Source: a virus
Taxonomy: Duplodnaviria > Heunggongvirae > Uroviricota > Caudoviricetes
Virus record (IMG/VR): IMGVR_UViG_2740892488_000014
Length of the DNA: 30,859 nucleotides
Strand: one strand, 5' to 3'
The notes under the pieces are model-generated. The model made no database searches, had not been told where the DNA came from, and saw only the letters and a program-made list of their open reading frames with translations. Each line of letters begins with the position of its first letter. Position 1 is the stretch's first letter. The position numbers and the translations under genes are program-made. Positions 11,558 to 30,859 of the stretch are shown here, one piece after another.

Positions 11558-12124
11558 ATGGCAAGTCAGGCTGAGGTTGCAGCACATTTACTGCTATCTG
11601 ATCGTCGTCTGCGCGATCTCGCAAAACTTCCGGGAGCACCAGTCCCACAAGGACGTGGTGATTGGGAGCTAGACGCATGGCGCCATTTTTATATTCGTTA
11701 TCTCCGGAGCAATAGACGCGACACAACTAGTAATGACGAACCGGAAGCGGGGGACAATTCTCCCGAAAAAAATCGCGAGCAGTGGCTGAAAAATGAGGAA
11801 CGACAGGAGCGAATCCTGATGGCACGAGTAAAACGCCGCATTCTCGCTAAACGCTACGCGCCAATTGAATTAATTAGCGTCGCTGTATCTCGCGTCGCCG
11901 TTGAATTACGTACCCGCGTCGAGTCGTGGCCACCACGCCTGAAAAAGGTCTGGCCGGAGATGCCGCAAGAGGCGAGCAGTGTATTACGAGAGGAGCTGGC
12001 GATAGCCTTAAATGAGTTGTCAGACATACGAATCGACTTCAGCGATTACGATGTCAGCGATATCGAACGCGATCTCGACAGGGTTGAATCCCTTGCGCGT
12101 GACGATACCGATGACGGGTGTTGA
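11558..12124 (+). CDS. terminase small subunit (lambda Nu1-like)
   Basis: 188-aa ORF immediately upstream of and overlapping the large-subunit gene; layout resembles lambda Nu1. Confidence 0.65.
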   Translation: MASQAEVAAHLLLSDRRLRDLAKLPGAPVPQGRGDWELDAWRHFYIRYLRSNRRDTTSNDEPEAGDNSPEKNREQWLKNEERQERILMARVKRRILAKRYAPIELISVAVSRVAVELRTRVESWPPRLKKVWPEMPQEASSVLREELAIALNELSDIRIDFSDYDVSDIERDLDRVESLARDDTDDGC

Positions 12125-13974
12125 GTGGGCTGATAAATATTTTTATCTCCCTGAGGGCTCCAGCCACATCGCTGGGCACTGGACGACTCAGCCGGTCCAG
12201 GTAGTGATGCTCAATATGATGACGAACGACGCGATAAAAATCGTGTCTGTTCGCAAATCAGCTCGTCTCGGTTATACAAAAATACTCGTCGCGGCGCTGC
12301 TCTATTTCGCTGAGCACAAAAAACGTAGTGCCGTGGTCTATCAGCCTATCGATGACGAATCGGATGGATTTGTCGCCGACGAGGTTGACCCCGCTATCGC
12401 CGAAATGCCAGTGATTCAGAAAATTTTCCCCGACTGGGATAAAAGCAACGAGCGTAACAATCTCCAGCGTAAAGAAATGAGCGGCGCGATTCTTGATTTT
12501 CGCGGCGCGAGTGCACCAGGAAATTTCCGGCGACTAACGAAACAGGTTGTCGAGGGTGACGAAGTTGACGGCTGGCCGCTGGAAGTTGCCAAAAAAGGCA
12601 AAGGCGAGGGCTCGCCCATCGAACTGGCGCTCGTTCGAATTAAAGGGGCAGCGTACCCGAAGGCGATTTTTGGTTCGACGCCGACCGTTACCGGCAAAAG
12701 TCATATCGAAATGCTCGAAGACGCTGCCGATCTGACGTTTCGTTTTTACCTGACATGTCCGCATTGTGGCGAGGAGCAGGTCCTGGTATTTGGTTTCGAC
12801 GGTATCGAATACGGCCTCAAATGGGATAACAGCCTGCAGACCAATGAGGCGAAATCGTCGTCCGCGTATTACCAGTGCTGCCACTGCCCGGAACATTTTT
12901 TACTATCGCGATCTCGAAAAAATGGAGTTCGGGGGGCGCTGGATAGCCGAGGACTGCACCTGGACCCGAGACGGCATTCATTTTTTTGATCATGACGGTG
13001 GCGTCGTTCGCGCGCCGAAACACGCTGCGATCGTGATAAACGCCCTGTATTCACTAAACCTCGATGGATGGGGCGAGATTGTCAGCGAGTGGCTGAAAGC
13101 GAAAGGCGACCCGCTCAAGGAAAAGACGTTTCATAACACGACGCTCGGCGAACTCTGGAGCGACGTGGCCAGCGAGCAGCTGGAGCACGATATTCTGGTT
13201 AATCGCCGGGAAAAATACGCCAGCCAGGTTCCTGACGGTGTTGTTTATATAACCGGCGGCATCGACTCTCAGACGTCCGGGCGCTACGAGTGTTATGTGT
13301 GGGGCTGGGGAGCCGAGGAGGAGTGCTGGCTGATTGATAAAACAATCGTCCTCGGTCGCTACGACGAGGAGGACACGCTGCAGCGCGTCGACGGAGTGAT
13401 TCGCAAACAATACCGGCGCAGCGACGGGACCACAATCGGCGTCAGTCGCTGGGCGTGGGATACCGGTGGTATAGATGCGCAGGTCGTTTATAACCGCTCG
13501 CTGAAACTCGGTCCGCTGTGGGTCATTCCAATCAAGGGCGCGAGCTCATACGGCCAGCCGGTCGTAAATATGCCTCGTACCCGTAACGCGAATAAAGTGT
13601 ATTTGTCGTTGATTGGGACAGATACAGCGAAAGACCTGCTCGCAATGCGCCTGCAGCTGGAACCCGACTCCAAATCGGCGACACCAGGTGCGATTCATTT
13701 TCCCAACGACGACGAAATATTCAGCACGACAGAGGCAAAACAGCTCGTCTCCGAGGTTCTGATCCCGAAACTCATTAACGGTCGCGTCGTTTATCGTTGG
13801 GACAACCAGGGCCGGCGAAATGAGGCGCTCGACTGCTGGGTGTACGGACTGGCAGCGCTGCGTATCAGTAAAATTCGTTTCCAGCTCAATCTCGAGACGC
13901 TCGCTGAGCAACGGAAAAAATCACAAAACAAACTGTCTCTCGAGGAGATGGCCAGAATGCTCGGAGGGAGCTAA
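12012..13974 (+). CDS. terminase large subunit (lambda gpA-like); frame change at a T6 run
   Basis: N-terminal GVEWADKYFYLPEGS… and C-terminal …WTRDGIHFF…TTLGELWS…YITGGIDSQ…CYVWGWG…IPIKGAS…ALDCWVYGLAALRIS match lambda gpA; the two ORFs (12012-12989, 12766-13974) join if the T-run 12896-12901 has one more T. Start codon uncertain (12012, 12051 or 12111). Confidence 0.85.
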
Positions 13975-14207
13975 TGACGTCGCGCGAGGTTTTAACAGAA
14001 CGACTGCTGGAAGCGGAAATCGCTCTGCACAAATTATTAACGGGTAAATCGACCGTGTCGCTGTCTCACGGCGATTCAGCAGGAAATAACCGGAGCTATC
14101 AATACTCGCAGGCGAGTATTGAGCAGCTCCGAACGTACATTATCGAGCTGAAATCACAGCTCGGTCTGAGTACGGGACGCCGTCGGCCCGTGGGAGTTCG
14201 ATTATGA
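13974..14207 (+). CDS. head-tail joining protein (lambda gpW-like)
   Basis: 77-aa ORF with LHKLLTGK…QLRTYIIELKSQL, matching lambda W; ATGA overlap with the terminase stop. Confidence 0.8.
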   Translation: MTSREVLTERLLEAEIALHKLLTGKSTVSLSHGDSAGNNRSYQYSQASIEQLRTYIIELKSQLGLSTGRRRPVGVRL

Positions 14208-15778
14208 CTGCTCCGCAGCAGCTGCTCGGGCCTGACGGTAAAACGCCACTACGCCGTTACGCGGGGTATAACGGCGGCGGTCCCGGTTTCGGTGGCCAGC
14301 TGATTGACTGGAACGCACCACAGCAGAGCGCCGACGCAGCACTGTTGCCGAATTTTTATCGCGGTAACGCGCGAGCAGACGATCTCGTTCGCAATAACGG
14401 CGTCGCGTCGAACGCCGTGCAGCTGCACCAGGATCATATCGTCGGCAATCTGTTTAAGTTGAGTTATCGCCCTAACTGGCGTTACCTCGGCATATCTCGC
14501 GAGGACGCCAGGGCGCTGGCGCGTGACGTCGAGGTAGCGTGGACTGAATACGCCGAGGACCCTCACTGCACGATTGATATCGAGCGGAAACGGACGTTCA
14601 CAATGATGATCCGCGAGGGCGTGGCTACTCACGCTTTCAACGGTGAAACCTGCGTACAACCAGTCTGGGAGAGTAGTGCCGGCAGCGTTTTTCGGACGCG
14701 ATTCAAAATGGTCTCACCGAAACGGATTCGAAATCCGGGTTACGCAGCTGACACTCAATTTCGCCGCGCCGGTGTTGATATCGATAAAAACGGGGCCGCG
14801 GTCGGGTACTGGATAGCCGAGGATACTTACCCTCTCGGCGGAGTCGGTAAATGCCGGCGTATCCCAGCACAGCTCAGCAGCGGCAGACACGCATTCATCC
14901 ACATATTCGAGCCGCTCGAGGACGGACAGACCCGCGGGGACAATATTTTTTACAGCGTCATGGAGCGCCTGAAAATGCTCGACACACTGCAGCAAACACA
15001 ACTGCAGAGCGCCATTGTGAAGGCGATGTATGCCGCGACAATCGAATCAGAGCTCGACAGCCAGCAGGCGTTTGAATATATCGCCGGCGCGGGTACTGAT
15101 ATCGACTCGAACCCGCTGAATTCGTTTATTCAGAGTTACGTGACGTACTACAACGGCGCAAATATCAAGCTCGGTGGTGTGAAAGTTCCCCACCTGCATC
15201 CCGGCGACAAACTCAGTTTACAGACCGCTCAGAATGCTGATGCTGGTTTTAGTTCACTGGAAAAATCACTCCTGCGTTACGTTGCAGCTGGCGTTGGCGC
15301 GTCATACGAAGAACTTAGCCGGGACTACAGCCAGGTCAGTTACTCCAGCGCCCGGGCCAGTGCTAACGTCAGCTGGCGATTTTTCATGGGGCGTCGACGT
15401 TTTATCGCCGCGCGACAGGCGTCGCTGATGTTCTGCTGCTGGTTTGAAGAGGCGCTGGCACGCGGAATTATCACCCTGCCACGCTCAGCTGTCCGGTCGT
15501 TTTATGAGGCGCGGAACTCCTGGACGAACGCGCTCTGGATCGGCGCTGGTCGCATGGCGATTGATGGGCTGAAAGAGGTTCAGGAGAGCGCCATGCGCAT
15601 CACAACTGGCCTCAGCACGTATCAGAACGAACTGGCGCTGCAGGGACAGGATTACGAGGAGGTTATGGAGCAGCAGGAATACGAAATTCAGCGCCGGCGT
15701 GAAATGGGGCTGAGCGAACCGTCATGGTCTGTATCTCACCCCTCAAATACCAACGATAACGGCTGGGGAGGTAACTGA
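14204..15778 (+). CDS. portal protein (lambda gpB-like)
   Basis: 524-aa ORF with long conserved stretches (LLGPDG…RRYAGY…GFGGQL…LLPNF…RGNARADDLVRNNG…LHQDHIVG…) matching lambda B. Confidence 0.9.
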   Translation: MTAPQQLLGPDGKTPLRRYAGYNGGGPGFGGQLIDWNAPQQSADAALLPNFYRGNARADDLVRNNGVASNAVQLHQDHIVGNLFKLSYRPNWRYLGISREDARALARDVEVAWTEYAEDPHCTIDIERKRTFTMMIREGVATHAFNGETCVQPVWESSAGSVFRTRFKMVSPKRIRNPGYAADTQFRRAGVDIDKNGAAVGYWIAEDTYPLGGVGKCRRIPAQLSSGRHAFIHIFEPLEDGQTRGDNIFYSVMERLKMLDTLQQTQLQSAIVKAMYAATIESELDSQQAFEYIAGAGTDIDSNPLNSFIQSYVTYYNGANIKLGGVKVPHLHPGDKLSLQTAQNADAGFSSLEKSLLRYVAAGVGASYEELSRDYSQVSYSSARASANVSWRFFMGRRRFIAARQASLMFCCWFEEALARGIITLPRSAVRSFYEARNSWTNALWIGAGRMAIDGLKEVQESAMRITTGLSTYQNELALQGQDYEEVMEQQEYEIQRRREMGLSEPSWSVSHPSNTNDNGWGGN

Positions 15779-17086
15779 TGCCGTGGAACAATTTTCCGCA
15801 CCTCGCCGCCAGGGCGTTCAATCAACCGCTTTTGCTGGAGCCCACCTACGCGCGGGTATTTTTTTTCGGCGCTGAGCGACCGGTTCGGTACCGGGCGACT
15901 GATTGATACAGCGTCTGGAGAGGTAATGAACAGCGACGAAATGAACGCGCTCGCGATGGGGTGGGACAGCAGCGAGCGAACACGCCAGAAATCGTATCGC
16001 GTGGAGCGTGGTATAGCCGTTCTGCCGGTTACCGGGACGCTGGTTCATAAATTGGGTTATATCAACCCAGTTAGCGGGATGAGCGGTTACAACGGAATCG
16101 CAAAACGCCTGCAGCAGGCGATTTCTGATCCCGATGTAAGAGGGGTCCTGCTTGATATTGACTCCCCTGGCGGTGAAGTCGCCGGCGCGTTTGATACTGC
16201 TGATTTAATCGCCCGGGCGCGAGAGCAAAAACCTGTGTGGGCGCTGGCCAGCGATACGGCCTGCAGCGCTGCCTATTTGCTGGCGTCAGCGTGTTCGCGC
16301 CGGCTGATAACGCAGACAGGCACAGTTGGTTCAATCGGTGTCCTGATGGCTCACCGCTGCGTCGAAAAAGCGCTGGAGATTGCTGGCGTCGACGTGACGC
16401 TGATTTACGCCGGCGCGCACAAAGTTGACGGGAACCCGTATTCCCAGCTGCCAGGCGACGTTCGCGACGAATTCCAGCTGAGTATTAACAGCACGCGCGA
16501 GCAGTTCGCGCAAAAAGTCTCGGATTATACCGGGCTGAAAAAATCCAGGGTGCTGGCCACGGAAGCTGCAGTATTTATCGGCGCGGACGCGATTAAATCT
16601 GGTCTCGCTGATCAACTCGTTAATTACGCGGACGCTATCGCAGTGATGGCCGACGCACTGAAACCAAAAATGGAGCGCTTTATGTCTGGTACAGAAACCA
16701 CGGCGGAGACCACGACCACAGAACAAACCGCGACCACGACTACTGTCGCGCAGGTTGAGTTTAACACGGAGCAGATTCGCGCGGACGCCGCATCAAGCGA
16801 ACTGGCGCGTGTGATGGCCATCATCAATTGTCCCGAAGCTGTTGGGCGCGAGGCGCAGGCAAAAGCGCTCGCTGGCGTCCCCGGGATGACGGTCGGGCAG
16901 GCGCAGGTAGTCCTCGCTGCAGCACCTAAAACGGCGCAGGCGCGGACAGAAACGGCGCTCGATACACTAATGAGCACTGAATCACCAGCGACTATTCAGG
17001 ATGCTGGCAGTACTACGGCAACAGGAACAACCGCAAACGTCTCGATGCTGGTTGCTGCAGGGCGTTCAATTTTAGGGGATGAATAA
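15778..17086 (+). CDS. head maturation protease / scaffold (lambda gpC/Nu3-like, S49 family); frame change at a T8 run
   Basis: ATG 15778 overlaps the portal stop; N-terminus FNQPLLLEPTYARVFF matches lambda C but stops after the T8 run 15859-15866; with one T fewer it continues into the 15926-17086 ORF (…GIAVLPVTGTL…GYNGI…LLDIDSPGG…KPVWALA…). Confidence 0.85.
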
Positions 17087-17415
17087 TGACTACAGAAACG
17101 TATAGCCCGGACGATTTTATTCTTGGGCCTGACCTTGTTGTCACGACCGTCGGTCATTTTCAGGGCGGGATCAACGTACCCCGGCTGACACCGATTATGC
17201 TCGACGCTACTGTCGGGACGTTTAAGGTTTGGGACGGCTCAGTCGGTAAAGCTATTGGCCTCACTGCCACCGCAGTTAATACTGGCTCCAGTTCTGCAGA
17301 CTGCTCGTACTATAAATCAGGCTCGTTCCGTTACACGGCGATTAACTGGGGTACGGTTACCGACGTAGCTAAACGCAAATCAGCATTTGCGGGTACGCCG
17401 ATCAGCGTCGGCTGA
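17086..17415 (+). CDS. head decoration protein (lambda gpD-like)
   Basis: 109-aa ORF; …PIMLDA…VWDG…YKSGSFRY…KRKSAFAGTPISV parallels lambda D. Confidence 0.8.
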   Translation: MTTETYSPDDFILGPDLVVTTVGHFQGGINVPRLTPIMLDATVGTFKVWDGSVGKAIGLTATAVNTGSSSADCSYYKSGSFRYTAINWGTVTDVAKRKSAFAGTPISVG

Positions 17416-17473: not shown

Positions 17474-18509
17474 ATGAGCGATTCGTTTACTACGTCAGAA
17501 CTGATTACCGCGACACAGCAGGTATTTAAGTTCAATCCGTTGTTTTTAAAGCTGTTTTTCCGTGAGACCTACACGTTTACGAGCGAAGAGGTTTTTCTGG
17601 ATAAAATCCCGGGAAAAGTGAACATGGCCGTGTACTGCGCGCCGATGATCACCGGCAAAGTTGACCGCACTCGCGGCTATTCAACGAACCATTTCAAACC
17701 GGGTTACACGAAACCCAAGCACACGATCAATCCGAATATGAGCATCAAGCGCGCAGCCGGTGAGCAGATTGGCCAGCCGGAAACGCCGGTCGAACGTCGT
17801 GCAAAAATCATCATGCAGAACCTGCTTGATGAGGAACTGAGCATCAGCCAGCTCGAAGAGTTCCAGGCGGTACAGGCTGTTCTGTACGGTAAATACACTG
17901 TTTCCGGCAGCAATATCGAGACCTATGAGATCGACATGAGCCGCAGCGCGACGAATAACGTCACTCAGTCCGGTTCGACAGCCTGGTCGACTCAGGACGC
18001 GGAAACGTATGACCCGAGCGACGATATTGAATCCTACGCGGACCTCGCCTCCGGTGCGGTTAACGTGATCATCATGGATGGTAAAGCCTGGAAGCAGTTG
18101 AAGCGTTTTAAAAAATTCTGGACGGCACTGGATACGCGCCGTGGCTCAAACAGCCAGCTCGAGGTCGCGCTGAAAAACCTGGGCGACGTTGTCAGCTTTA
18201 AAGGCTACTACGGCGACACTGCGCTGTTTGTCTACAAAGGGCAATACCTCGACCCGGTAACAGACACTGAAACGCGTTATATGCCGGATAACACGATGAT
18301 CCTTGGCAACACAAAAAAACCGCGGGCTCCGCACTTATGGCGCAATTCAGGACGAAGACGCGCTGAAAGAGGGTATTTCCGAAGCGACGCGCTATCCAAA
18401 AGTCTGGACCACTACCGGTGATCCGGCAGTGACGCAAACAATGACGCAATCCGCGCCAGCAATGGTCCTCACGGACGCCGACGCGTTCGTTGTCGTAAAA
18501 ATCGCGTAA
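17474..18509 (+). CDS. major capsid protein (lambda gpE-like); frame change at an A7 run
   Basis: Matches lambda E across its length; ORFs 17474-18421 and 18303-18509 join if the A-run 18313-18319 has one A fewer, giving …DNTMILGNTKNRGLRTYG… as in lambda. Confidence 0.85.
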
Positions 18510-18543: not shown

Positions 18544-18963
18544 ATGAGCACAAAAACAGAATTGCTGGCGCGTATTGACGATCTGAGCGCTCAGCTCGGT
18601 CGCGAATTACCGCGCAGCGGGACTATTGCGGAACTGGAATCAATCGTTGCCGGCGCTGAGTCAGAGCTCGATATTCTGAACGAGCAATCCGGTGACGCGG
18701 GAGGCATCGAGATTACAGTGAATACTGCGTCCGGGACCGATAATGAACTCGCTCAATCAATCGCGAGCGCTATCGTTTCACAGTCACAAGAGCAGGAGCT
18801 CGCACCGGCTACGCGCCGCGTCAAGTTGCGTAACACGCTGGACGTTTATCACTACGTGAACGGGCGTCGCGTTCGCGAGATTGTTGCCGCAGGCCGTGAA
18901 ATTGTTGTTGATTCACCGGAGGTCGCAGACCTTATCGCAGCTGATCACGTTTACGCTCTATGA
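18544..18963 (+). CDS. DNA-packaging protein (lambda FI-like)
   Basis: 139-aa acidic protein; N-terminus MSTKTELLARIDDLSAQLGRELPRSGTIAELE resembles lambda FI. Confidence 0.6.
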   Translation: MSTKTELLARIDDLSAQLGRELPRSGTIAELESIVAGAESELDILNEQSGDAGGIEITVNTASGTDNELAQSIASAIVSQSQEQELAPATRRVKLRNTLDVYHYVNGRRVREIVAAGREIVVDSPEVADLIAADHVYAL

Positions 18964-19341
18964 GCTACTACGATGACCTCCGGGCCGGCGACGAGGAGAT
19001 GATCCGTGAGTGGGGACGGCCCGTTAAATTACGCGGTAAAACCGACCCCATTATCGCTATTTTCAACGAGCCTTACGCGCGCGTTGACGTTCCTCACGCT
19101 GGTTTTATTACCGGTACAGTAACGAGCCTGACGGCGCTCTCGGACGACGTCGCTGGCGTTGTTGCGCGTGACGTCGTCCAGGTTCCAAAGCAGCGCAGCA
19201 TCGAACCTGACGGCTCTGTTACCTGGTCTGGCTGGACCGATTACGTGGTTAAAGAGCCTCAACCTGATGGCACAGGGCTCACGAATATTTTTTTTAGAGC
19301 CTCACACGTCCAGCGAAAACAGCGAGTATTCAAAATACTAA
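18960..19341 (+). CDS. head-tail joining protein (FII-like); 3' end ambiguous at a T8 run
   Basis: As written the ORF runs to 19472 and overlaps the next gene by 100 nt; 9 T's at 19288-19295 would stop it at …GLTNIFF (113 aa), 7 T's would stop it at 19341; both fit an FII-sized protein. Confidence 0.4.
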
Positions 19342-19372
19342 GTGGGACCTCGGTCCCACTTAAGGGGGAACC

Positions 19373-20053
19373 GTGGCCGATTTACGTAGTAACGCGCAGA
19401 TGTTCGATATCGATGTTTCGGCGCTGGAGCAGCTCAGAGTCGAAATCAGCGCGACGCAACATCAAATGTTAATGGTATACAACAGGGCGCTGAACCGAAC
19501 TGCAAAACATATGCACCGAATTTCAGCAGGAATGATTTTGACTGCACTGGCAGCTAAAAATCATAAGGCCGTAGATAAACGAATCAAGCCGTTCATTAAG
19601 CGCCGTAATTTTACAAAAGAAGGGGCAGGAGACCTGAGCAGCGCCAAGCTCTGGTACGGTCTGAATGATTTCCGGGTATCTGAGCTAAAGGGGCGATTAC
19701 AAAATCCACGGAGGCAAAAACAGCCTCGCGATCTTGAGACCGGCCTGTTTTTGAAAACCAAAAAAGGCGCTAGAGGGGCAACTTTTACACCCAAAAGTGC
19801 AGGGCTGGCGATGATGAGTTGGCCCGATTCATTCGTAGCGAAACGCTACGGTGCGAAAAGTGTCTGGATTCGACTGGATCGCGGAGGAATCGAAGAGGCT
19901 CGCGTACCTGTGCACGACGCGCTGGAGGATGCTATCGATGATTATATTTTTGAAAACATTGGCCCTGTTTTTATGGGCTTTTTTGAGAAAGATTTGCGCG
20001 GTCGCGTGAAAGGTAATGTCCACGTAGACCCAAAAACAGGTAAACGATTATGA
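19373..20053 (+). CDS. hypothetical virion (neck/tail completion) protein
   Basis: 226-aa ORF from GTG 19373 with AAGGGGG Shine-Dalgarno; sits between the head and baseplate genes; no family recognised. Confidence 0.4.
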   Translation: MADLRSNAQMFDIDVSALEQLRVEISATQHQMLMVYNRALNRTAKHMHRISAGMILTALAAKNHKAVDKRIKPFIKRRNFTKEGAGDLSSAKLWYGLNDFRVSELKGRLQNPRRQKQPRDLETGLFLKTKKGARGATFTPKSAGLAMMSWPDSFVAKRYGAKSVWIRLDRGGIEEARVPVHDALEDAIDDYIFENIGPVFMGFFEKDLRGRVKGNVHVDPKTGKRL

Positions 20054-20586
20054 GCGGACTGGATGCATTTGACGAATATCTTGATCGCGTTAAAGGCGCG
20101 GTTTTACAAATACCGTTCATCAAAACATTCGGAATTTATCCGGAAATTCCGGCTGGATTTGAAACGCCAGCTCTGTTCCTGGAAATCAGCAACTGGTCAC
20201 AGAGTGACGAATCGGTTCCAGGCTCAATTCAGTCAGTCGAGCTGTCGTGTAATTTGTATTTGCTGCGTGAATTTGCAGCTGATCAGTACGGACTGAAATC
20301 GCAGAATGCAGCGCTCTATATGACGAGCTGGATCAATGGGCGAATGTTCGGTCCCGGAACTAAACCGGCAAAATTCAGCGACGCGGAACCGTGCGACTGG
20401 ATTAAAAACGGGCAGTCAGTCGGTTCGCATTCAGTTCAGTGCGTGTCGTTCACGCAGGTTGTAGGCGTTGGTCCAGATATTTTCGATTATCCCTCACAGG
20501 GGACCCTGAAAAATATATACGTCGGAATAGCACCAGATATCGGCGCAGAACATGAGGGCGACTATTATGGCCCAATCGGACGATGA
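20050..20586 (+). CDS. hypothetical virion protein (possible tail completion)
   Basis: 178-aa ORF translationally coupled to the neighbours (ATGA overlap); called by position. Confidence 0.4.
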   Translation: MSGLDAFDEYLDRVKGAVLQIPFIKTFGIYPEIPAGFETPALFLEISNWSQSDESVPGSIQSVELSCNLYLLREFAADQYGLKSQNAALYMTSWINGRMFGPGTKPAKFSDAEPCDWIKNGQSVGSHSVQCVSFTQVVGVGPDIFDYPSQGTLKNIYVGIAPDIGAEHEGDYYGPIGR

Positions 20587-21813: not shown

Positions 21814-22730
21814 TAACATCAACAGTTCAGAATTCGATAGTGAAAACTATTGATATGAGTCTGCTGCCGCCGCCAGCATTCGTTAAAACCCCGTTATTTT
21901 CAGATGTTAAATCTAATCTACTGTCAGAGCTGCAGATATTATATCCACAATTTAACGCACTCCTGGAGTCAGACCCGGCCGTTAAACTGCTGGAAATAGT
22001 TGCATACAGAGAAATCATTATTACAGCTCGGGTAAATCAGGGGATGCTCGCTGTATTGCTCGCGTTTGCAAAGGGGAGTGACCTCGACCAGATTGGCGCT
22101 AATTTTGACTGCCTGCGGCTGTTGATAACGCCAGCTAATCCCGATGTAATTCCCCCGACTGAGGCTGTTTACGAGAGTGACGACGAGTATCGACACCGAA
22201 TACAGCTATCATGGTATGCGCGGAATACTGCCGGCAGTACGAACGCCTATAACTATTTCGCGCTGTCGAGTGATCCCGACGTTCTGTCAGCTCAGGCGTA
22301 CGGCCCGCCGGTGACCCAGCCTGGATACGTCGATATGTATGTCTTGTCGCGAACCGGCGACGGCACTCCGCCTCAATCACTACTGAATACAGTGAATGCG
22401 GCCCTGTCTCCTGACGATACTCGACCGCTGACTGATTTCGTGACTGTAAAACCTGCGTCGAACCTGAATTACCGGGTTGAGGCCGTTATCGTAGCCGGGC
22501 TCGGACCCGACCAGAACGTTTTGCTTAACGGTGCTCAGAGCGATTTGGCGATATATGTGGATACGCAACATAAAATCGGAGCGACGGCAGCTCTGTCAGG
22601 AATTTACGACGCGATACATCGTGACGGCACTGAACGTGTGATTCTGATATCGCCAACAGAGGATGTGATCGCTGGCGTCGGGCAGGCTCCGTACTGCACA
22701 GAAATCAAACTCAGCGTGCAAATGGGGTAG
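21810..22730 (+). CDS. baseplate protein (P2 gpJ-like)
   Basis: …LLPPPAF…ESDPAVKLLEIVAYRE…DLDQIGANF…TPANPDVIPPT…SDDEYRHRIQ… parallels P2 J; TTG start after a GGAG Shine-Dalgarno. Confidence 0.8.
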   Translation: MITSTVQNSIVKTIDMSLLPPPAFVKTPLFSDVKSNLLSELQILYPQFNALLESDPAVKLLEIVAYREIIITARVNQGMLAVLLAFAKGSDLDQIGANFDCLRLLITPANPDVIPPTEAVYESDDEYRHRIQLSWYARNTAGSTNAYNYFALSSDPDVLSAQAYGPPVTQPGYVDMYVLSRTGDGTPPQSLLNTVNAALSPDDTRPLTDFVTVKPASNLNYRVEAVIVAGLGPDQNVLLNGAQSDLAIYVDTQHKIGATAALSGIYDAIHRDGTERVILISPTEDVIAGVGQAPYCTEIKLSVQMG

Positions 22731-22732: not shown

Positions 22733-23359
22733 ATGACAAGTCAAAGCGTACTGCCTCCGAACGCAATAACCCCTGAGAGGGCGCTTGAGGTTGTTTTATC
22801 TCACGTCGGCGATCTGCCTGGCGATATTCGAATTATTAAAAATCCCGATTTGTGCCCTGCAAATCTGTTGCCGTGGCTGGCGTGGGAGTACGCGGTCACC
22901 TACTGGAACCCCGACTGGAGTGAGCAGCAAAAACGCGAAATTATTAAAGCAGCTGCGTGGCAGAATAAGCACCGCGGAACGCGTGGAGCTGTTGAACGAG
23001 CGTTATTAACTGTTGGCTTTGAGAGCAAAATGAGAGAGTGGTTTGAAGCCACGCCCAGGGACGACCCGTATACATTCGCAATTAAAATATATCTGCTAAA
23101 AAGCATGGGGTTAGATTTAGAACTATTGAATACATTTATTGCACAAATATTTGATGCAAAAAATTGTCGTTCCTTATTAAAAGAAATAAATTTCGAAACG
23201 GGTGTCGATGGTGAGTTTTTTATAGCCGGTACACCTTACGCGAAAATAGGCGTAAACGTCCCAGCAGACGGCGACGGCGGTGTAAAAATTAACGGCGGGC
23301 TATATATATCGGGCTCACCAATTGTTAGTTTAAATGTGGAGATAGGGCCAAATGGCTGA
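22733..23359 (+). CDS. baseplate/tail-fibre attachment protein (P2 gpI-like)
   Basis: …NPDLCPANLLPWLAWEY… matches P2 I; C-terminal half is AT-rich. Confidence 0.75.
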   Translation: MTSQSVLPPNAITPERALEVVLSHVGDLPGDIRIIKNPDLCPANLLPWLAWEYAVTYWNPDWSEQQKREIIKAAAWQNKHRGTRGAVERALLTVGFESKMREWFEATPRDDPYTFAIKIYLLKSMGLDLELLNTFIAQIFDAKNCRSLLKEINFETGVDGEFFIAGTPYAKIGVNVPADGDGGVKINGGLYISGSPIVSLNVEIGPNG

Positions 23360-24536
23360 AAATAAAATTTACGCAGTACTGACAGACCGTGGCGCACAAC
23401 TTGAAGCCGCTGCGCTGGCATCGGGTGTACCCGTGGTGCTGAATAAATTCGTTATTGGCGACGCAAACGGAAACGACGACGTAACACCGGACCCGGCACG
23501 AACTGCATTAATTCACGAGACGTATCGTGGGGATATTAAATCCGCAGAAAATAGCGGTAACCAGGTTATCTTTACACTTTACGTACCGCCAGACACTGGG
23601 GGCTATACTATCCGTGAGGTGGGGATATTAACAGATAAAGGCGAGCTGTACTCTGTGGCGCGCTCGCCGGACATTTTAAAACCTACGGACAGCAACGGTG
23701 CGCTGATTTCAATCACGTATAAATACACACTCGCGGTGTCCAGCACATCTACGGTTAATGTTGTAGTATATGACAACTACGTAACTCCCGAGGAAGCTGA
23801 CAAAAAATATTTGCAGATAAGTAAAAACTTATCTGAAATTCCCGCAAATGGTGAAACTGCTCAGCAGGCTGCGCGGAAAAATATTGGTATAGATGGGGAC
23901 GTTGCATATAGAGATAAGGGTAATGCATTTACTCATCCAAATACTTTTAAAGATGATGTGATTTTTGAAGACGTTTTATCCTCTAAAAAACAAATAAATA
24001 TAAACAAACCGGGCACTGATTTGACGTTGTTTTCATTTGCTGGTTTATCAGATGTGTCGGGCGATTATTTAGATTTTTCGACCCGTGGAGAAAACAATCA
24101 GAAGGTTTTTTATAGATTACGCGGAGTTCACTATGATGGCCTGGTGTTACTGTGCGGCGGGCAGACGTATAAATACTGGAATGAGGCTAATCTTAAACCG
24201 GTTAAAACGATTAACGGGGAGTCGCCGGATGAAAATGGCAACATAGATATAAGTCTTTCACCGGACCCATCACCGGAAATAGGTGTTGTTGGCGCGGTTG
24301 GTACTTATGCGCTTGTCGCTATTAATCATGCACCACAAATACTCCCGGGCTCCATATGGGCTGGAGGGGATTTATATTACGCTAGTATAAATAATACCGG
24401 TTCATATAACACGGATATTGCCACAAAACCATTTTATGACACACCACTTATTGGCTCATGGCGAGCCATGGCGTATTCACCCGGTGGAGTCGGTGATATT
24501 GGGACTGCCTGTTTTTTAGCTATTAGGATTGCGTAA
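23352..24536 (+). CDS. tail fibre protein (P2 gpH-like N-terminus, divergent C-terminus)
   Basis: N-terminal YAVLTDRGAQLEAAALASGVPVVLNKFVIGDANGNDDVTPDPARTALIHE…IREVGIL matches the conserved tail-fibre N-terminal domain; the C-terminal two-thirds is AT-rich. Confidence 0.75.
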   Translation: MAENKIYAVLTDRGAQLEAAALASGVPVVLNKFVIGDANGNDDVTPDPARTALIHETYRGDIKSAENSGNQVIFTLYVPPDTGGYTIREVGILTDKGELYSVARSPDILKPTDSNGALISITYKYTLAVSSTSTVNVVVYDNYVTPEEADKKYLQISKNLSEIPANGETAQQAARKNIGIDGDVAYRDKGNAFTHPNTFKDDVIFEDVLSSKKQININKPGTDLTLFSFAGLSDVSGDYLDFSTRGENNQKVFYRLRGVHYDGLVLLCGGQTYKYWNEANLKPVKTINGESPDENGNIDISLSPDPSPEIGVVGAVGTYALVAINHAPQILPGSIWAGGDLYYASINNTGSYNTDIATKPFYDTPLIGSWRAMAYSPGGVGDIGTACFLAIRIA

Positions 24537-24925
24537 TGATAAGCGTTGATTCATTTAGAAAAATAACAAACCCTGTTTTTAATGACGAGCATGGGTTATC
24601 TATAAATATTATTTGCGATATTGACGGGATTGGAAACGACATTCCATTCACCGCAATGAAAAATGATTGCGAGGAACACGGTAGGGTTTTATATGAAAGA
24701 GCGCTGAGCGGGGATTATGGGAGCATTTCTAAATTTGTAAAAAAAGAGCAGACGCAAAAACTCCAGACTACATTACGGACTGTTGGCGATCTGTCAATTG
24801 AGGCATTCTCAATTCAGTGTGCAGTAGATGCCGGAACCGCATCTGACGCGCAAATCGAAAATTTGGCCGAGCTTAAAGAAGCAATAGCGACGCGAATTGG
24901 TGAAAATAGAGAAGGAATAAAATGA
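24536..24925 (+). CDS. putative tail fibre assembly chaperone
   Basis: 129-aa ORF directly after the tail-fibre gene with ATGA overlaps on both sides; AT-rich; called by position and weak C-terminal resemblance to Tfa proteins. Confidence 0.4.
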   Translation: MISVDSFRKITNPVFNDEHGLSINIICDIDGIGNDIPFTAMKNDCEEHGRVLYERALSGDYGSISKFVKKEQTQKLQTTLRTVGDLSIEAFSIQCAVDAGTASDAQIENLAELKEAIATRIGENREGIK

Positions 24926-26425
24926 GCGTAACTAATTTTTTACACGGTATTCGCACGCTCGAATACGACGACGGCACAAAAGAGATCAACACAGTAGATA
25001 TTTCCGTGATTGGGATTGTTGGTACTGCTCCCGATTCCAGCTACCCAACTTGTGCATCACTATTATGGGGATCAGAGCTCGCAGACAATCTTGTTGAGTT
25101 TTCGACTGTCATGCCAGGGGCCGACGGAAACAACTGGATTGTTGAAATTGTTGATTTGGGAATTAACGGGAATGTAGCAACTCCAGGATACAGCACACTG
25201 CCCGACGGTTCGAGAAAATTAACAATGATCACGGACGGTGCCATGACCCCGTCAAAAATGTACGATCAGAACCAGCAGTATAAAGAAGGACTCCAGATTG
25301 GAGAATATATTAACGTCACATTCGGTGGTGATCACGCAGGAACGGGGACTGTATTCGCGCTCCCCCCAACAAATTTATCCGGTGGTAAAGACGAATCGTT
25401 CAAATATAATGTTCCGACGTTAATTGCAGGCAGTCAAAAAAAAAGCTGGATTGCTCGGTGGGTCTGGAACCCTTCCTCCCGCTGTATCTGAAATACTAAA
25501 TCAGGAGGATGCCATTATTGTTGTTGTCCGCGTCGAAGAGGACAGCGACGAAACAAAAATGCGGCAGAACGTCGTTAACGGGATTAACGCATTGTTGACG
25601 TCTGCGCAAATAAATCAAGTAACGCCGAGAATTTTAATCGCTCCAGATTATAGTGCTAACGATTATATTGCAGAACAACTTGAAGTGGTGACAAATAAAT
25701 TACGAGGCGTTGGATATATCGATTCACCGCGAGGCGCTACGCCTGCTGACGTTGTAAATCGTCGTCAGAGGTACGGCGGCAGAATGGAAATTCTGCGCCC
25801 TCGTGTTTATTCTACGAGTGATGTTAGTGGTTTATCTCGTCCGTATTCAGCTATCGCTGCTGGTTTACGAGCCAGAATTGATAACGAAAAAGGGTTTTGG
25901 TGGAGCAAATCGAATCAAAATATCTACGGAATTACAGGACTCGAACAAGTCGATGATTTTATAATCGGTGAAACGAACTGCACAGCAAATCTGCTGAACG
26001 CCAGCCAGGTCAGCACAATTATTCGCTATGATGGATTCAGACACTGGGGTAACTATCTGTGTAGCCTCAGTCCCCAATGGTCCTTTGAATGCGTTCGTCG
26101 GACAGCTGACGTAATTGAGGATTCAATAGCCCGGGCAATGATGACCGATTTTATTGATCGCCCGATAGACCTGCACCTCGGAACAGACGTTGTAGAGTCG
26201 ATAAACGCGTATCTGCATAAATTAGAGGAGCAGGGCGCGATTAACGGAGGACGGGCGTGGTTAGATGAAGAGTTAAATACAAAAGAAAGTCTGGCCGCTG
26301 GTAATCTTTATATTAATGTTGACTTTGGACCGAAATCCCCGGCACAAACAATTACGTTAATGTACCGCATTAATAATGATTACACAGTTGAAGCTCTGGC
26401 CTCTCTTTTTAAAGAAACAGTCTAA
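24922..26425 (+). CDS. contractile tail sheath protein; frame change at an A9 run
   Basis: N-terminus MSVTNFLHGIRTLEYDDGTKEINTVDISVIGIVGTAPDS and C-terminal region (…ARIDNEKGFWWSKSNQ…IRYDGFRHWGN…NLYINVDFGPKSP…) are typical of sheath proteins; ORFs 24922-25491 and 25424-26425 join if the A-run 25436-25444 has one A fewer. Confidence 0.85.
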
Positions 26426-26442: not shown

Positions 26443-26955
26443 ATGGCAGATAGTAACACCTATCGTGCATTTGCGTTGTTCGTCCAGGGAGAACGAGTTT
26501 TAAATTGCACTGAATACACTCCCGTCGATATGAAAATAATCGAAGATGATTTTAAGACGGGCGCTATGGATACAGCTATCACTCTGGACGGGGGAATGGA
26601 GAAAATGTCAGCCAGTTTTAAAGTCTCTGGCTCCGATTCTGGTGTGATGGGGTATTTGGGATTAATACCAGGTGCTAAAACAAGGTTCGAAATTCGAAGT
26701 GCATATACTGACAATTACGGTGTCAATTTTGAACGTATTGATACATATGAGGGGCTTATTACGGCGATTACTGATGACGCGCAGGGGACTGATTCAAAAT
26801 CAGCAGTTGGGCAATCAGTAACGATTGCGCCGAGCTATTATAAACGAGTTCAAAATGGAAAAATTATTTACGAGATTCATCCTGCAAAAATGAAACGAGT
26901 AATTAATGGTGTTGACGTTCTTGCGGGCGTTGCTCGTATTCTCCATGTATATTAA
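26443..26955 (+). CDS. tail tube protein (P2 FII-like)
   Basis: 170-aa ORF directly after the sheath gene with GGAGAA Shine-Dalgarno; size and position match the tube protein. Confidence 0.7.
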   Translation: MADSNTYRAFALFVQGERVLNCTEYTPVDMKIIEDDFKTGAMDTAITLDGGMEKMSASFKVSGSDSGVMGYLGLIPGAKTRFEIRSAYTDNYGVNFERIDTYEGLITAITDDAQGTDSKSAVGQSVTIAPSYYKRVQNGKIIYEIHPAKMKRVINGVDVLAGVARILHVY

Positions 26956-26967: not shown

Positions 26968-27249
26968 ATGGAATCATTATTAGACAGTATGACTATTACG
27001 CTCTCTCGCCCGTTTATTATTAAGGGGGAGAGCCGCGATACAATTACTATTCGCGAACCAAAATTACGCGACCGCATTATGTTCAGTAACGATAAAAGTG
27101 GTCTTGAAGAGCGGACAGCGACAATGCTGGCGCGCCTGGCAAATCTGGAGCGTGAGGATTTATATGCACTGCCTGCGTGCGATTACGATCAAATGGAGGC
27201 CGCATTTAACGAACTGGTAAAGCCTCCGAAAGACCGACATCAGATATAG
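26968..27249 (+). CDS. tail assembly chaperone (P2 gpE-like), with an overlapping -1 frame extension (E'-like) to 27380
   Basis: 93-aa ORF before the tape-measure gene; a 55-codon open -1 frame (27210-27380) overlaps its 3' end and the tape-measure start, as in the conserved chaperone frameshift arrangement. Confidence 0.65.
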   Translation: MESLLDSMTITLSRPFIIKGESRDTITIREPKLRDRIMFSNDKSGLEERTATMLARLANLEREDLYALPACDYDQMEAAFNELVKPPKDRHQI

Positions 27250-27357: not shown

Positions 27358-28997
27358 ATGGCTATTTCTCAAAACTTTAAAACGCAGGTTGTATTCGGTG
27401 GGCGAATAGACCCGTCGTTTCGTCGCGGTACAACAGAACTCAATGATGCGATTCGGCAGACGTCGTCTACTGTCGGGAAATTAACGAAAAGTCAGGATAA
27501 ATTAAAAGACAAAATCGCAGCAATGAAACTGGCAGGTAAAGACGTTTCTGATTTATCTGCTCAGTATCAAAAGCTGGACCGTCGAATAAAAGCGACAACG
27601 CAGGACCAGGAGGCGCTGAATACTCAACTTGCTAAAAAACAGCGGCTGGAGAAGTGGACGGGTCGCGCAAAAGGAGCTGCAAAATGGGGCGGACGAGCCG
27701 CCGCAGGTGCGGTGAGGGCTACGGGGCGGGGTATCAAATGGGGGACACTTGGCGCGGCAGGGCTCATTGGCGGTGCTGCAGCTGGTGCGCTGGCAATGAA
27801 TGCAGAGACGTCAGAAAAACTCGGTCTGGCGAAGTCCTACGGCGTTGGCGTCGAAAAATACGCTGCGTGGGAAAATATTGGTAAAGCCGCGGGCCTGAAC
27901 GGCGAAAATATCGGGGATTTGTCTGAAGAACTTACAAATAAAATCGGCGAAATCGGAAACGAAAAAAGCCTGAATCCCATGTTATTTCAAATTGGCCTGA
28001 CGAAAAAACGAATGGCTGGCTGGGATCGGGAAAAACAGTTTAATGAGGTTATGCGTCGCATCTCTGAAATGAAAGATGAGAAGCAAGCGGCGAGCCTCGC
28101 TGACCAGCTCATGGGGGGCGAGGCTAATAAGATCATGACGTATATGAAGGCGACGGGTAAAAGCTGGGAACAGACAATGTCTGACGCGCAAAAGTCGAAT
28201 TTGTTAACAAAAGAGGGTGCGGAAGGGGCGGCGCGTGCGCATGTATCAGTGACAAATCTGTGGGGCTCTATTACGTCGGGACTTGCAGATACACTCGGTA
28301 AAATCGGGGGGGAACTCGCGCCGACGTTTGACTCAGTACGTGAAACATTTACATCCTGGTTTAAGGATAATCAGGGTGGTTTTGTCAGCACAATTACTGA
28401 GTGGGTAAAACCAGAAAATATGAAAAAATGTGGGATGGCATCGTCAATTTTGGAGAAGGTTGCGTCAAATTCGGGAAGATTATATGGGCTGTCGTAAAGA
28501 AACTGGAGTGGCTTATTCCGGATGAAAAATCAGATGAAGAACAGAAAACTTATAATGACGAATATAATCGGGCATATCAAGAGTTTATGGATTCGGGAGG
28601 TAAATATTCACCGAACGCTGGATTGACTGCTGATAATATTGCGAAGGCAAAAGCCGAAGAGGCTGTCGAAAATATGCGGCATCCAGAACGGCAAGAACAG
28701 GCAAAATCTCAGGCAGAATCAATGCTCGCGTTTGTTAATCCATTATCCGGGATGGTAAATAAAAATACCGCGCCTGCAGCACTGGATTCGTCGACGTTAA
28801 ATATTGATACGTTGAAGCAGGCAGTCTCGACACCTGCGCCGGAGCAAAACAATAAAATCGAAATCAATATTGTCGGTGCGACAGATCCGCAGTCAATACA
28901 ACAATCTGCAGCGTCGGGGGTGCTCGATGGACTGAGACAGGCTGCGAGTTCGTACAATCGTGGCGCGATGTTTGATAAACCAGCTGCGGCGGGGTGA
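27358..28997 (+). CDS. tail tape-measure protein; frame change at an A6 run
   Basis: Long helical Ala/Gly/Lys-rich protein following the chaperone; ORFs 27358-28497 and 28401-28997 join if the A-run 28423-28428 has one more A (…PENMKKMWDGIVNF…). Confidence 0.8.
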
Positions 28998-29422
28998 CAA
29001 TGAGTGATGCAATAAACGGTGCTGAGGATATCATGCTCGGCCTGGGTGATTTCATTTTTGCTATATCAACAGTAGCGTACAACAAACTGCAACGTAGTGA
29101 CGCCTGGCGCTGGGCTCAGCAAACACGATTCGGGAAAAACGACGCGTTGCAGATAACCGGACGACCGAACCCCACAATTACTATCGATGGAAAGATAAAC
29201 GCTTTATTTCTTGACGGGTGCGGCGTCGGCCTGTTGACAGATTTGCGAGCGCTCGGGAACACGGGAGAACCCCAGCAGCTAGTGCTGGGGACCGGGGAGG
29301 TGAAAGGGTACTGGGTGCTGCGAGAACTAACTGAAACGCAAAACAGCTTTTTGATGGGCGGAACACCTAAATCGCAGGACTTTTCACTCACGCTCGAATA
29401 TTATGGAGCTTCGCTAGATTAA
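28994..29422 (+). CDS. tail protein (P2 gpU-like)
   Basis: 142-aa ORF; …GYWVLRELTETQNSFLMGGTPKSQDFSLTLEYYG resembles gpU; start GTG 28994 or ATG 29000. Confidence 0.7.
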   Translation: MTMSDAINGAEDIMLGLGDFIFAISTVAYNKLQRSDAWRWAQQTRFGKNDALQITGRPNPTITIDGKINALFLDGCGVGLLTDLRALGNTGEPQQLVLGTGEVKGYWVLRELTETQNSFLMGGTPKSQDFSLTLEYYGASLD

Positions 29423-29597
29423 TACAAAATCAAGCGCTACCAGAGCACTTAACAAGTATAAAAATAATAAAAAAAAACTACGAACATAAATGTAAAACAA
29501 CCTGATGGTATTTTTTTTTGACGCCGAAATACTAATACCTCTCCGACTACTAAAATTAATTCTCATTATGAAATCCTTTTAATTAATGGGGCCCCAA

Positions 29598-29811
29598 ATG
29601 ATTACATACACTACACGGGACGGTGACCGTCTCGATCAGATCTGCCTTGCGGTCTACGGGAGAGCGTCAAAAACGACAGAGACTGTTTTATATCAGGTTT
29701 CGAATTACGGCGTAACGGATATGTGTGCCGTGTTTCGTGCTGGAGAAAAAAATTGTTTTACCAGATATCGAACCAGAGCCGGTTAAAAAAGAAACGCAAT
29801 TATGGGATTGA
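29598..29811 (+). CDS. tail protein X (P2 gpX-like, LysM-type); frame change at an A7 run
   Basis: N-terminus MITYTTRDGDRLDQICLAVYGR matches gpX; with one A fewer at 29746-29752 the reading continues …EKIVLPDIEPEPVKKETQLWD and stops at 29811, matching the gpX C-terminus. Confidence 0.65.
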
Positions 29812-29814
29812 TGA

Positions 29815-30859
29815 ATGAGTGATTACGTAAATACTGGCGTGGAGGCGTGGAAACCTAATTTTTATATATCTGCTGATAATAAAAACATCACGGATAAAAT
29901 AAGAAAAGGTTTGATCAATATCACGCTGACAGATTACGGCGGCTCCAGTAAACAGACAGACGAACTCCGCGTAGCAATAGTTTCTGAAACTCTGAAAATT
30001 CCGGCCCGCGGAGTAAAAATCAGTATTGGGCTCGGTTTCGGTAATCAGATAATTGATAAAGGGATATACATCGTTGACGGTGCTAGCAGTGGCGGTGAAC
30101 CCCGGGTAGTTGATTTCACAGCAAAAGCGGCTCCGATGAACGCAGCAAAAGGATCTCCGACAGTTCAGAGCAAAAAGACTCGTTCCTGGAGCGACGTCAC
30201 TGTCAGCGATATCGTTGCGACAATAGCGAGCGATAATGGGCTAAAACCACGCGTATCAAAGCGGTTTGCAGACAATGTTATCACGCAACTCGATCAGGTC
30301 GGCGAGTCAGATATGCACCTGATGTCGCGGCTCGCAACGAGATTCGATGCGGTGAGTAAACCCGCGGGCGGGTACTGGATATTCCTGCCGCGCGGCGCGG
30401 GCGAATCTGTTAGCGGTGCTCCGCTCCAGCACTACACGCTAACTCGTCGTGATAACTCCAGCTGGGGCTATTCGAGAAATGGACAAAGTGGCGATAGTGG
30501 TAGCGGTGGCGAAAATCCGGAACCGACGTATCTGATTAAATATCACGACACAGCAACTGGGCAGATCAAAGAATTGCGGACAAGGTAGTGGCGGCGATCC
30601 TGTCATTGAATGGCCGGCAGTTGAGCCGTCGCTCGACGCAGCGAAAGAAGCTGCACCAGGGCTCAAGGGCGGTGCAGCTAAAAAAGAGTTCTCTATGACG
30701 TACACGACGCCAGCGACGCTCGATTTAGTGTCGCTGACAGCAGAATGCAAAGTCACAACTCAAGGTTTCGGGACCGAGGAGGACCGGGACTGGACTATCA
30801 ACACACTGAGTCTGACGCTCGCTGAAAACGGTTTTTCGGTTCGGCTGTCTCTGGAGTAA
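29815..30859 (+). CDS. tail protein D (P2 gpD-like); frame change near 30568-30576
   Basis: N-terminal and middle regions (…KGIYIVDG…SWSDVTVSDIVATIASDNGL…ESDMHLMSRLA…YHDTATGQIK…) match gpD; the C-terminal 95 codons in the next frame (…WTINTLSLTLAENGFSVRLSLE) match the gpD C-terminus and stop at the last base of the window. Confidence 0.8.

Follow-up and report, generated by a model that had tools for sequence, protein, structure and literature searches.

Lambda-family head genes and P2-family contractile tail genes in a 42.6-kb prophage at leuZ of Escherichia coli

Phages that pair a lambda-like head with a P2-like tail have been described for decades. The Wolbachia WO phages carry lambda-like packaging and head genes together with P2-like baseplate and tail genes, and the Xylella fastidiosa prophages XfP1 and XfP2 are likewise lambda/P2 chimeras, with a lambda-like terminase, portal, and minor capsid protein and a P2-like baseplate and tail (PMC3235987). 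These statements came from a broad literature search; a search for the exact phrases “lambda-like head” and “P2-like tail” together returned nothing. Members of the Jilinvirus group are small-genome myoviruses as judged by transmission electron microscopy, and bona fide prophages of the group have been noted (bioRxiv 10.1101/2024.09.12.612763). The present analysis concerns a 30,859-nucleotide stretch of tailed-phage DNA (IMG/VR record IMGVR_UViG_2740892488_000014, hereafter the window), whose positions 11558-30859 hold the virion genes of an Escherichia coli prophage at the tRNA-Leu gene leuZ. A preliminary description of this DNA had proposed a lambda-like head module joined to a P2-like tail module, and ordered Pfam families on both sides bear out a lambda-family head and a P2-family contractile tail. 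The region very probably constitutes one late operon belonging to one 42.6-kilobase (kb) lambdoid temperate prophage, with a lambda-type head and a P2/R-pyocin-type tail. This is an already known type of mosaic, and it represents an old, widespread lineage, not a fresh hybrid.

The limits of the prophage can be followed in a reference copy (NZ_CM190152, loci L001 and L002). From left to right, genes for tRNA-Gly, tRNA-Cys, and tRNA-Leu (leuZ) are followed by a tyrosine integrase and by an early region that the RefSeq annotation furnishes with helix-turn-helix (HTH) regulators, a YdaT-family protein, and a replicative helicase. DUF1367 and YbcO proteins, a Q antiterminator, two holins, and a peptidoglycan hydrolase come next, then the head and tail genes, a lipoprotein gene, and yecA. 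The integrase adjoins leuZ, and yecA lies on the opposite flank. A direct repeat of 125 base pairs (bp), made up of the 3' 56 nucleotides of tRNA-Leu and 69 nucleotides downstream, has its second copy between the lipoprotein gene and yecA; the two copies, attL and attR, are 42,613 bp apart. Because the integrase lies beside tRNA-Leu, the repeats are 42.6 kb apart, and the late genes are all on one strand, the region is one unit rather than two adjacent prophage remnants, the possibility that had been named as fatal to the original proposal. The element is a single integrated 42.6-kb prophage with ordinary attL and attR at leuZ. Its early and lysis region is lambdoid in organization, as first suggested, with Q antiterminator, YbcO, DUF1367, holins, hydrolase, helicase, and integrase; in the window itself, open reading frames (ORFs) upstream of the late genes match the Pfam families Phage_antiter_Q, YbcO, and DUF1367.

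Family assignments below are Pfam matches above the curated cut-offs unless stated otherwise, complemented by PHROG, NCBIfam, BLASTP, phmmer, hhalign, and Foldseek, and the comparison with lambda and P2 was made gene by gene. Positions 11558-19341 carry a lambda-family packaging and head set in lambda order, with all genes here and in the tail region on the plus strand. The product at the Nu1 position (11558..12124, 188 residues) is a small terminase by its match to PHROG 57 (terminase small subunit, E 3e-39); searches with Pfam Phage_Nu1 and NCBIfam were negative, BLASTP gave a weak C-terminal match to lambda Nu1 (E 6e-4 over 49 residues), and the orthologue in a related locus, L007, matches PF07471. 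The large terminase (12111..13974) is of the lambda gpA type, with GpA_ATPase (PF05876, 2.5e-46) and GpA_nuclease (PF20454, 5e-64) domains and 43% identity to lambda A over the full length (624 aligned residues). It is followed by a gpW head-tail adaptor (13974..14207; Pfam gpW, 6e-16), a portal of the lambda gpB family (14204..15778; Phage_portal_2, 8e-91; 64% identity to lambda B), an S49 prohead protease/scaffold of the lambda C/Nu3 type (15778..17086; Peptidase_S49, 1.6e-37), and a gpD-type head decoration protein (17086..17415; HDPD, 30.7 bits against a cut-off of 29.1). The gpE-type major capsid protein (17474..18509; Phage_cap_E, 1.5e-59) is 56% identical to lambda E and precedes an FI DNA-packaging protein (18544..18963; Packaging_FI, 1.1e-8) and an FII-type head closure protein (18960..19341; Phage_attach, 2.8e-11; PHROG 82, head closure Hc1, 1e-25). 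FII is recognized by profiles only, showing no detectable similarity to lambda FII in pairwise BLASTP; by analogy it would be the head-side partner of the tail terminator.

The proposed head order Nu1-A-W-B-C-D-E-FI-FII is thus upheld by Pfam from A to FII, with the Nu1 position assigned through PHROG 57 and the weak Nu1 match. The identities of A (43%), B (64%), and E (56%) to lambda speak against a head of some other lineage. By megablast, the only DNA similarity to lambdoid phages is a stretch of about 150 bp in the portal gene. As judged by sequence, the head belongs to the lambda lineage, but as a distant relative. Terminator-like GC hairpins with T-runs on the plus strand flank the major capsid gene, one 3' of the decoration gene (17434-17453) and the other 3' of the capsid gene (18508-18525), and may be read-through or attenuation sites in the late operon.

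Positions 19373-30859 encode a contractile tail of the P2/R-pyocin family. The baseplate genes begin with V, the spike/assembly protein (20552..21469; Phage_base_V, 3e-12), and continue with the gp25-like wedge protein W (21472..21813; GPW_gp25, 1.6e-16), J (21810..22730; Baseplate_J, 2.4e-20; 41% identity to P2 J), and the baseplate/tail protein I (22733..23359; Tail_P2_I, 3e-37). A tail fibre with an H-like N terminus (23352..24536; Phage_tail_fib, 5e-30, residues 4-139; PHROG 5075) and orf129, a small fibre-related protein (24536..24925), separate these genes from the tail sheath (24922..26425; Phage_sheath_1 and Phage_sheath_1C; 36% identity to P2 FI) and tail tube (26443..26955; Phage_tube, 1.5e-21). 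The tail assembly chaperone E (26968..27249; Phage_TAC_7, 1.7e-15) precedes the tape measure T (27358..28997), which has 546 residues in the reference copy, lies between E and U, and matches PHROG 3654 over its full length while finding no named family in Pfam or NCBIfam. Tail proteins U (29000..29422; Phage_P2_GpU, 2.9e-31) and X (29598..29811; Phage_tail_X, 1.9e-15) and the baseplate hub D (29815..30859) complete the set. D is frameshifted in the window and was identified by BLASTP to P2 D: its score against Pfam GPD is 22-24 bits, below the cut-off of 30.1, and an intact allele (AR_0089, 347 residues) aligns to residues 15-373 of P2 D with E 2e-25 and 25-30% identity. The lambda non-contractile tail families (V, G/GT, H, M, L, K, I, J) were not found by Pfam; sheath and tube genes are present instead.

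The predicted P2 families therefore stand for V, W, J, I, the H N terminus, sheath, tube, E, U, X, and D. Two further elements of the proposal fared differently. The gene at 24536-24925 had been called tfa, but orf129 matches no tail-fibre-assembly family (Caudo_TAP), which is present in the relatives L007 and L009, and it gave no Pfam or NCBIfam match; it resembles only the N-terminal part of the PHROG 1795 and 1141 tail-fibre families. The order U-X-D had been counted as that of P2, where X adjoins L; here X sits between U and D, as it does in the phages Arya and Chris1 considered below. The U-X-D order also occurs in R-type pyocin clusters. The sheath has 500 residues compared with 396 in P2 FI (496 in L007 and 503 in L009), the approximately 115 extra residues (44-157) following a conserved N terminus and probably forming an additional surface domain. 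Across the 109-nucleotide gap between E and T, the -1 frame stays open to about 27380 (approximately 57 codons), a possible E'; no canonical slippery heptamer (X XXY YYZ) was found for this putative extension, and its Pfam search was negative.

Between FII and V lie two ORFs, orf226 and orf178, which deposited prophage records call hypothetical and which had been singled out as the site of the head-tail junction and as possible special adaptors. They are instead proteins of the tail, and the actual head-tail adaptors here are gpW and FII. The product of orf178 (20050..20586) is a tail terminator with a gpU/gp15 fold, closest to the R2-pyocin collar PA0615, as supported by a profile match to PA0615 and a coherent list of structural neighbors. 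A phmmer search of Protein Data Bank (PDB) sequences returned one match, the PA0615 collar (6u5f, E 0.019), and a 10-sequence profile aligned to 6u5f_A with E 9.6e-4 (residues 25-179 against 24-167 of 171). Foldseek ranked the pyocin collar first (6u5j/6u5f, E 4e-5, probability 1.00), followed by the Mu terminator (9khy, also probability 1.00), the diffocin collar, the T1 terminator, the monocin cap, T4 gp15, T5 p142, and lambda gpU. NCBIfam gave no match for orf178.

With moderate confidence, orf226 (19373..20053, GTG start) is assigned as a divergent tail completion protein of the gpZ/HK97-gp10 type. Its PHROG match is to family 27, “tail completion or Neck1 protein,” with E 4e-43; it has no direct Pfam match and was negative with NCBIfam. 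Three of 30 orf226 homologues match Pfam Minor_tail_Z. The best of them (P0038), which shares 38% identity with orf226, reaches 47.7 bits (cut-off 23.9) across positions 6-186 of 190 and finds lambda Z by BLASTP with E 4e-4. Structure prediction, which had been recommended for both junction proteins, produced for orf226 a model with a predicted local distance difference test (pLDDT) score of 80.9 for which Foldseek found nothing in the PDB at E ≤ 0.001; phmmer and profile searches of PDB sequences with orf226 yielded chance matches only. A resemblance to terminator or neck structures was obtained for orf178, as a terminator/collar, and not for orf226. Neither protein had a significant pairwise BLASTP match to lambda Z or U or to P2 R or S. 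Searches for the P2 R (PF06891) and S (PF05069) families in orf226 and orf178 were negative, and P2 R and S themselves match these models. The hhalign comparison of the two family profiles with single lambda Z, P2 R, and P2 S sequences was also negative, although single sequences are weak templates and the result is no argument against homology. Lambda likewise begins its tail genes with Z and then the terminator, and in the prophage the coding regions overlap from orf226 through V.

The boundary between head and tail modules is not within these two ORFs, as first proposed, but at the gap between FII and orf226 (19342-19372) or just inside the 3' end of FII. GC content is 54.6% over 11558-19341 compared with 46.6% over 19373-30859, with every head gene at 52-57% and every tail gene at 40-51%. 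The maximum-likelihood changepoint falls at 19284 with a 2-log-likelihood-ratio (LLR) interval of 19183-20965, and its LLR of 62 compares with values of at most 18 in 200 block shuffles. The 31-nucleotide gap, between the FII stop codon and the GTG of orf226, is the sole real intergenic gap in the neck region. It is filled by a hairpin with an 11-bp stem (19338..19363) that has no T-run on the plus strand.

Relatives place the boundary at the same point. Locus L009 has a ClpP-fused capsid gene, so that its capsid is of a different type; amino acid identity to the present prophage is 23% for the portal and 39% for FII (C-terminal 94 residues only), yet 64% for the Z-like protein, 63% for the terminator, and 64% for the sheath. 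In L007, which has a full lambda-type head set, the values are 75% for the portal, 64% for the capsid, 48% for FII, 47% for the Z-like protein, 42% for the terminator, and 46% for the sheath, with 33% for the entry between capsid and FII. In a Vibrio prophage (L008), the capsid gene is a fusion of the S78-protease/HK97 type, yet Phage_attach, the Z-like gene, a 184-residue protein, and V-W-J-I are all retained. Because an unrelated head accompanies similar Z, terminator, and sheath proteins in L009, and because the GC step falls at the FII/orf226 gap, orf226 and orf178 are taken to travel with the tail. They are its first two genes, and the exchangeable unit is the capsid cassette.

A conserved stretch of FII bears on how this exchange is accommodated. 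The C-terminal approximately 30 residues (QPDGTGLT.I.L.P.T.SE.S.YS.Y; window 19250-19341) are conserved even with unrelated head genes, which suggests that they form the tail-facing surface. The FII counterparts lie at 9617-9967 in L009 and 9585-9971 in L007, and in L009 the N-terminal part of FII is without alignment. A speculative and rather doubtful extension is that a portable neck cassette, made up of FII, the Z-like protein, and the terminator, allows one P2-type tail lineage to be fitted to unrelated heads, with FII an intragenic mosaic. It is an equally tentative corollary that the N-terminal part of FII would follow the head (gpW and portal) and the C-terminal approximately 30 residues the tail terminator. 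Both ideas are compatible with the L009 pattern and with the GC changepoint at 19284, inside the 3' end of FII.

Set against the classical phages, the prophage shares with lambda the gene order A-W-B-C-D-E-FI-FII, preceded by a small terminase gene at the Nu1 position and followed by a gene assigned to the Z family and a terminator. After the terminator, lambda continues with V-G-T-H-M-L-K-I-J, whereas the prophage has a contractile P2-type tail, and its Z-like and terminator proteins are without detectable BLASTP similarity to their lambda counterparts. With P2 and the R-pyocins it shares the V, W, J, I, H N-terminal, sheath, tube, E, T, U, X, and D families, and its terminator is nearest to PA0615. 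It differs from P2 in lacking the head genes Q, P, O, N, M, and L as well as R/S and ogr, in the position of X, in the sheath insertion, and in a T of 546 rather than 815 residues. R-type tailocins differ in turn, as the prophage has a full head and packaging set and an integrase in the same element. The WO phages and XfP1/XfP2 occupy other hosts and are likened to the prophage by their described gene content.

A like arrangement of neck and tail is seen in Enterobacter phage Arya (Jilinvirus, Iiscvirinae), which has Hc1, a tail completion protein, a 188-residue protein, and then V-W-J-I through sheath-tube-E-T-U-X-D. The same neck/tail synteny is found in Escherichia phages vB_EcoM_ECO1230-10, vB_EcoM-ep3, and HeidiAbel (Bas97), in Pseudomonas phages PPpW-3 and Persinger, Burkholderia phage Mica, Ralstonia phage phiRSP, and Aeromonas phages, and in Citrobacter phage Chris1, Hafnia phage yong2, and Vibrio phage Valp1. 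The Jilinvirus group and the last three phages share a gpA-type terminase, a head-tail joining protein, a portal, an FII-type closure protein, a Z-like protein, and a protein of approximately 180 residues at the terminator position, all in small genomes of 40-45 kb. Identity to these phages is about 30% for the Z-like protein (28-32% to the Jilinvirus group) and 28-33% for the terminator, megablast detects no DNA match, and Arya and Chris1 have a fused protease-capsid gene rather than lambda-type C, D, and E; in Chris1, the sheath-to-D block precedes W-J-I. The prophage is therefore not a Lambdavirus (its tail differs), not a member of the Peduoviridae (head, R/S, and Ogr control differ), and not a Jilinvirus (approximately 30% identity and capsid type).

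The prophage is common in E. coli. By megablast, positions 11558-30859 are 100% identical, homopolymer lengths aside, to GenBank ON470624 (“Escherichia phage vB_EcoM-705R4”), and three sister GenBank records are matched as well. Among 5426 complete E. coli genomes, 442 cover at least 80% of the region, almost always with an identity of 99% or higher, and carriers of the leuZ prophage include strains labelled O25b:H4 and sequence type 131 (ST131), such as MB1159. ON470624 is also inserted next to yecA, as is the reference copy, and since it contains this host gene it looks like a predicted prophage region rather than an isolate or a sequenced virion. No paper on the biology of ON470624 and no specifically named ST131 leuZ prophage were found in the literature. 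Twenty-eight CRISPR spacers of urological E. coli match ON470624 (PMC12736100), and a spacer in the CRISPR array of E. coli LR-46 is 100% identical to a stretch of gene D (29908-29941). Just past the right end of the window, between D and attR, the reference copy encodes a 139-residue lipoprotein (L001 34463-34882; PHROG 890) that was negative in an NCBIfam search and is likely a moron or lysogenic-conversion gene.

Gene D carries a genuine defect in most copies. In the window, a 1-bp insertion at about 30582, with GGACAAGG in place of GGACAGG and outside any long homopolymer, splits the gene into an N-terminal ORF of 257 residues (29815-30588) and a remnant of the C-terminal part (30695-30859). 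An 81-bp probe spanning this position has exact matches in 66 genomes and matches of 95-99% identity in 367, the latter class being consistent with carriage of the insertion; carriers of an intact D include AR_0089, SK1144, and SA186, and some genomes have the insertion sequence (IS) IS1 in the D region. Descriptions of D as C-terminally truncated or internally deleted were discarded, as the +1 frame and the intact allele show a 1-bp insertion. Annotation of the P2 record lists D as an essential hub protein, and because D is frameshifted, the window copy and the majority, ST131-type allele are probably unable to build infectious tails.

The other interruptions in the window are of a different kind. 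Relative to L001 there are no substitutions, only single-base differences in the length of A/T homopolymers; relative to ON470624 there are again no substitutions and 11 such differences in 23 kb, 10 of them an additional base in the window. The sites are at 10030, 10093, 12901, 15866, 18319, 19295, 25444, 28428, 29477, 29519, and 29752 (also in 2055-4854), in runs of 5-9 nucleotides. They break a holin and seven structural genes and give rise to the overlapping half-ORFs in the program-made ORF list. The large terminase is split at about 12901 (T6 instead of T5), the major capsid gene at about 18319 (A7 instead of A6), the sheath gene at about 25444 (A9 instead of A8), and the tape measure gene at about 28428 (A6 instead of A7). 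In FII, T8 in place of T7 (about 19295) carries the ORF on to 19472, and X is altered by A7 instead of A6 at about 29752. Protease gene C is broken at about 15866 (T8 compared with T7 in ON470624, where the 435-residue gene is intact); RefSeq flags the same frameshift in L001, which also has T8, but its interpretation as genuine was rejected given the intact ON470624 gene. Their pattern makes these differences look like sequencing miscalls in the source assembly, unlike the insertion in D, and in reference copies all structural genes other than D are intact. The window copy also has an ISL3-family insertion at 5699-7585, in the early/late regulatory region, that is absent from the reference copy; it consists of a minus-strand transposase (5728-6948; DDE_Tnp_ISL3, HTH, and Zn-ribbon domains) and a minus-strand DUF1706 passenger gene (6967-7485). 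Window positions 1-543 are not collinear with the reference prophage and include the C-terminal part of an IS3-family (rve) transposase at 31-513, so a second IS lies at or beside the left end of this copy.

Three other explanations for the region were weighed. A lambdoid head remnant lying beside a P2-like or tailocin remnant would fit the sharp 8-percentage-point GC step between the halves, the frameshifted D, and the IS elements in and near the prophage. It is nevertheless extremely improbable: a single integrase and a single att pair enclose the whole element between its native neighbors leuZ and yecA, the RefSeq annotation places neither another integrase nor another regulatory region within the element, neighboring genes share overlapping start and stop codons both between orf226 and V and along the operon as a whole, and identical head-neck-tail synteny recurs in independent relatives and in plaque-forming myovirus isolates. 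The GC step can also be read as halves with different histories, and Pfam does name “lambda” families on one side and “P2” families on the other, with neither orf226 nor orf178 having a curated family name. A recent recombinant of a true lambda-like and a true P2-like phage, with the two ORFs newly recruited as adaptors, is still very unlikely. Lambdoid phages match by megablast over only that short portal segment, and no P2-like phage appears among the matches; at the protein level, identity is 43-64% with lambda and 25-41% with P2, and the element lacks P2 R/S and Ogr and has X elsewhere than in P2. Orthologues of orf226 and orf178 stand beside V-W-J-I in Enterobacter, Citrobacter, Hafnia, Vibrio, Pseudomonas, Burkholderia, Ralstonia, and Aeromonas phages and track the tail rather than the join; any swap concerned head cassettes among members of the lineage.

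Domestication deserves somewhat more weight but is also unlikely. According to this explanation, the element is defective (tailocin-like or a cryptic prophage, for example) and ST131 has retained it because it serves the host. D is frameshifted in 367 of the 435 genomes carrying the element, IS1 interrupts the D region of some copies, the window copy has the extra ISL3 insertion and an IS3 fragment, and the element is nearly invariant across hundreds of genomes. The near-invariance is, however, accounted for by clonal descent, with ST131-labelled strains among the matches, and 66 genomes keep an intact D while the other structural genes are intact in reference copies. Tailocins are not known to keep a complete set of head and packaging genes, and they too require D. 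The CRISPR spacers in other E. coli (PMC12736100; LR-46) argue that the element or its close kin has been met as an invader.

For the favored reading, a single late operon of a temperate prophage with a lambda-type head and a P2/R-pyocin-type tail, the following scheme can be proposed. Late transcription would probably depend on Q antitermination, running from the lysis genes through D, rather than on the P2 activator Ogr, given the Q antiterminator upstream and the lack of an ogr-like gene in the RefSeq annotation between D and attR. The lambda-type terminase (small subunit and gpA) would package cos DNA through the lambda-family portal into a gpE-type capsid that is matured by the S49 protease/scaffold and decorated by the gpD-type protein, and gpW and FII would then close the portal. 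A genome of 42.6 kb fits the packaging range of lambda. The contractile tail would be built separately from baseplate proteins V, W, J, I, U, X, and D, the H fibre, sheath and tube, the chaperone E (possibly with E'), and the 546-residue tape measure. The P2 tail is approximately 135 nm long; scaling from its 815-residue T suggests a tail of about 85-90 nm here. The orf226 protein would finish the tail, probably at the top of the tube in contact with the tape measure and the DNA end, a hexameric ring of orf178 would cap it, and FII may dock on this ring by analogy with FII on gpU in lambda, giving a predicted myovirus-like virion with an isometric head of lambda size and a short contractile tail.

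Several points weigh against this interpretation. No particle has been seen, and ON470624 is apparently a predicted region. Confidence in the AlphaFold model of orf178 is low (pLDDT 54.8), and by sequence orf178 is tied to PA0615 only at E of about 1e-3. Terminator-like hairpins are present within the proposed single operon, and both the FII-terminator contact and Q-dependent transcription are argued by analogy only.

Little of this is new at the level of the element: GenBank already has it, hundreds of E. coli genomes carry it, and related Jilinvirus myoviruses have been imaged. Annotators of the window sequence should beware of the apparent homopolymer errors that break seven structural genes besides D. 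What can be added is that two “hypothetical” genes are now nameable, orf178 as a tail terminator and, with moderate confidence, orf226 as a tail completion protein, and that the head/tail exchange point of the lineage is pinned to the FII/Z gap. For the host, the widespread ST131-type copy is probably no source of infectious phage, whereas the copies in the 66 genomes with intact D could be inducible.

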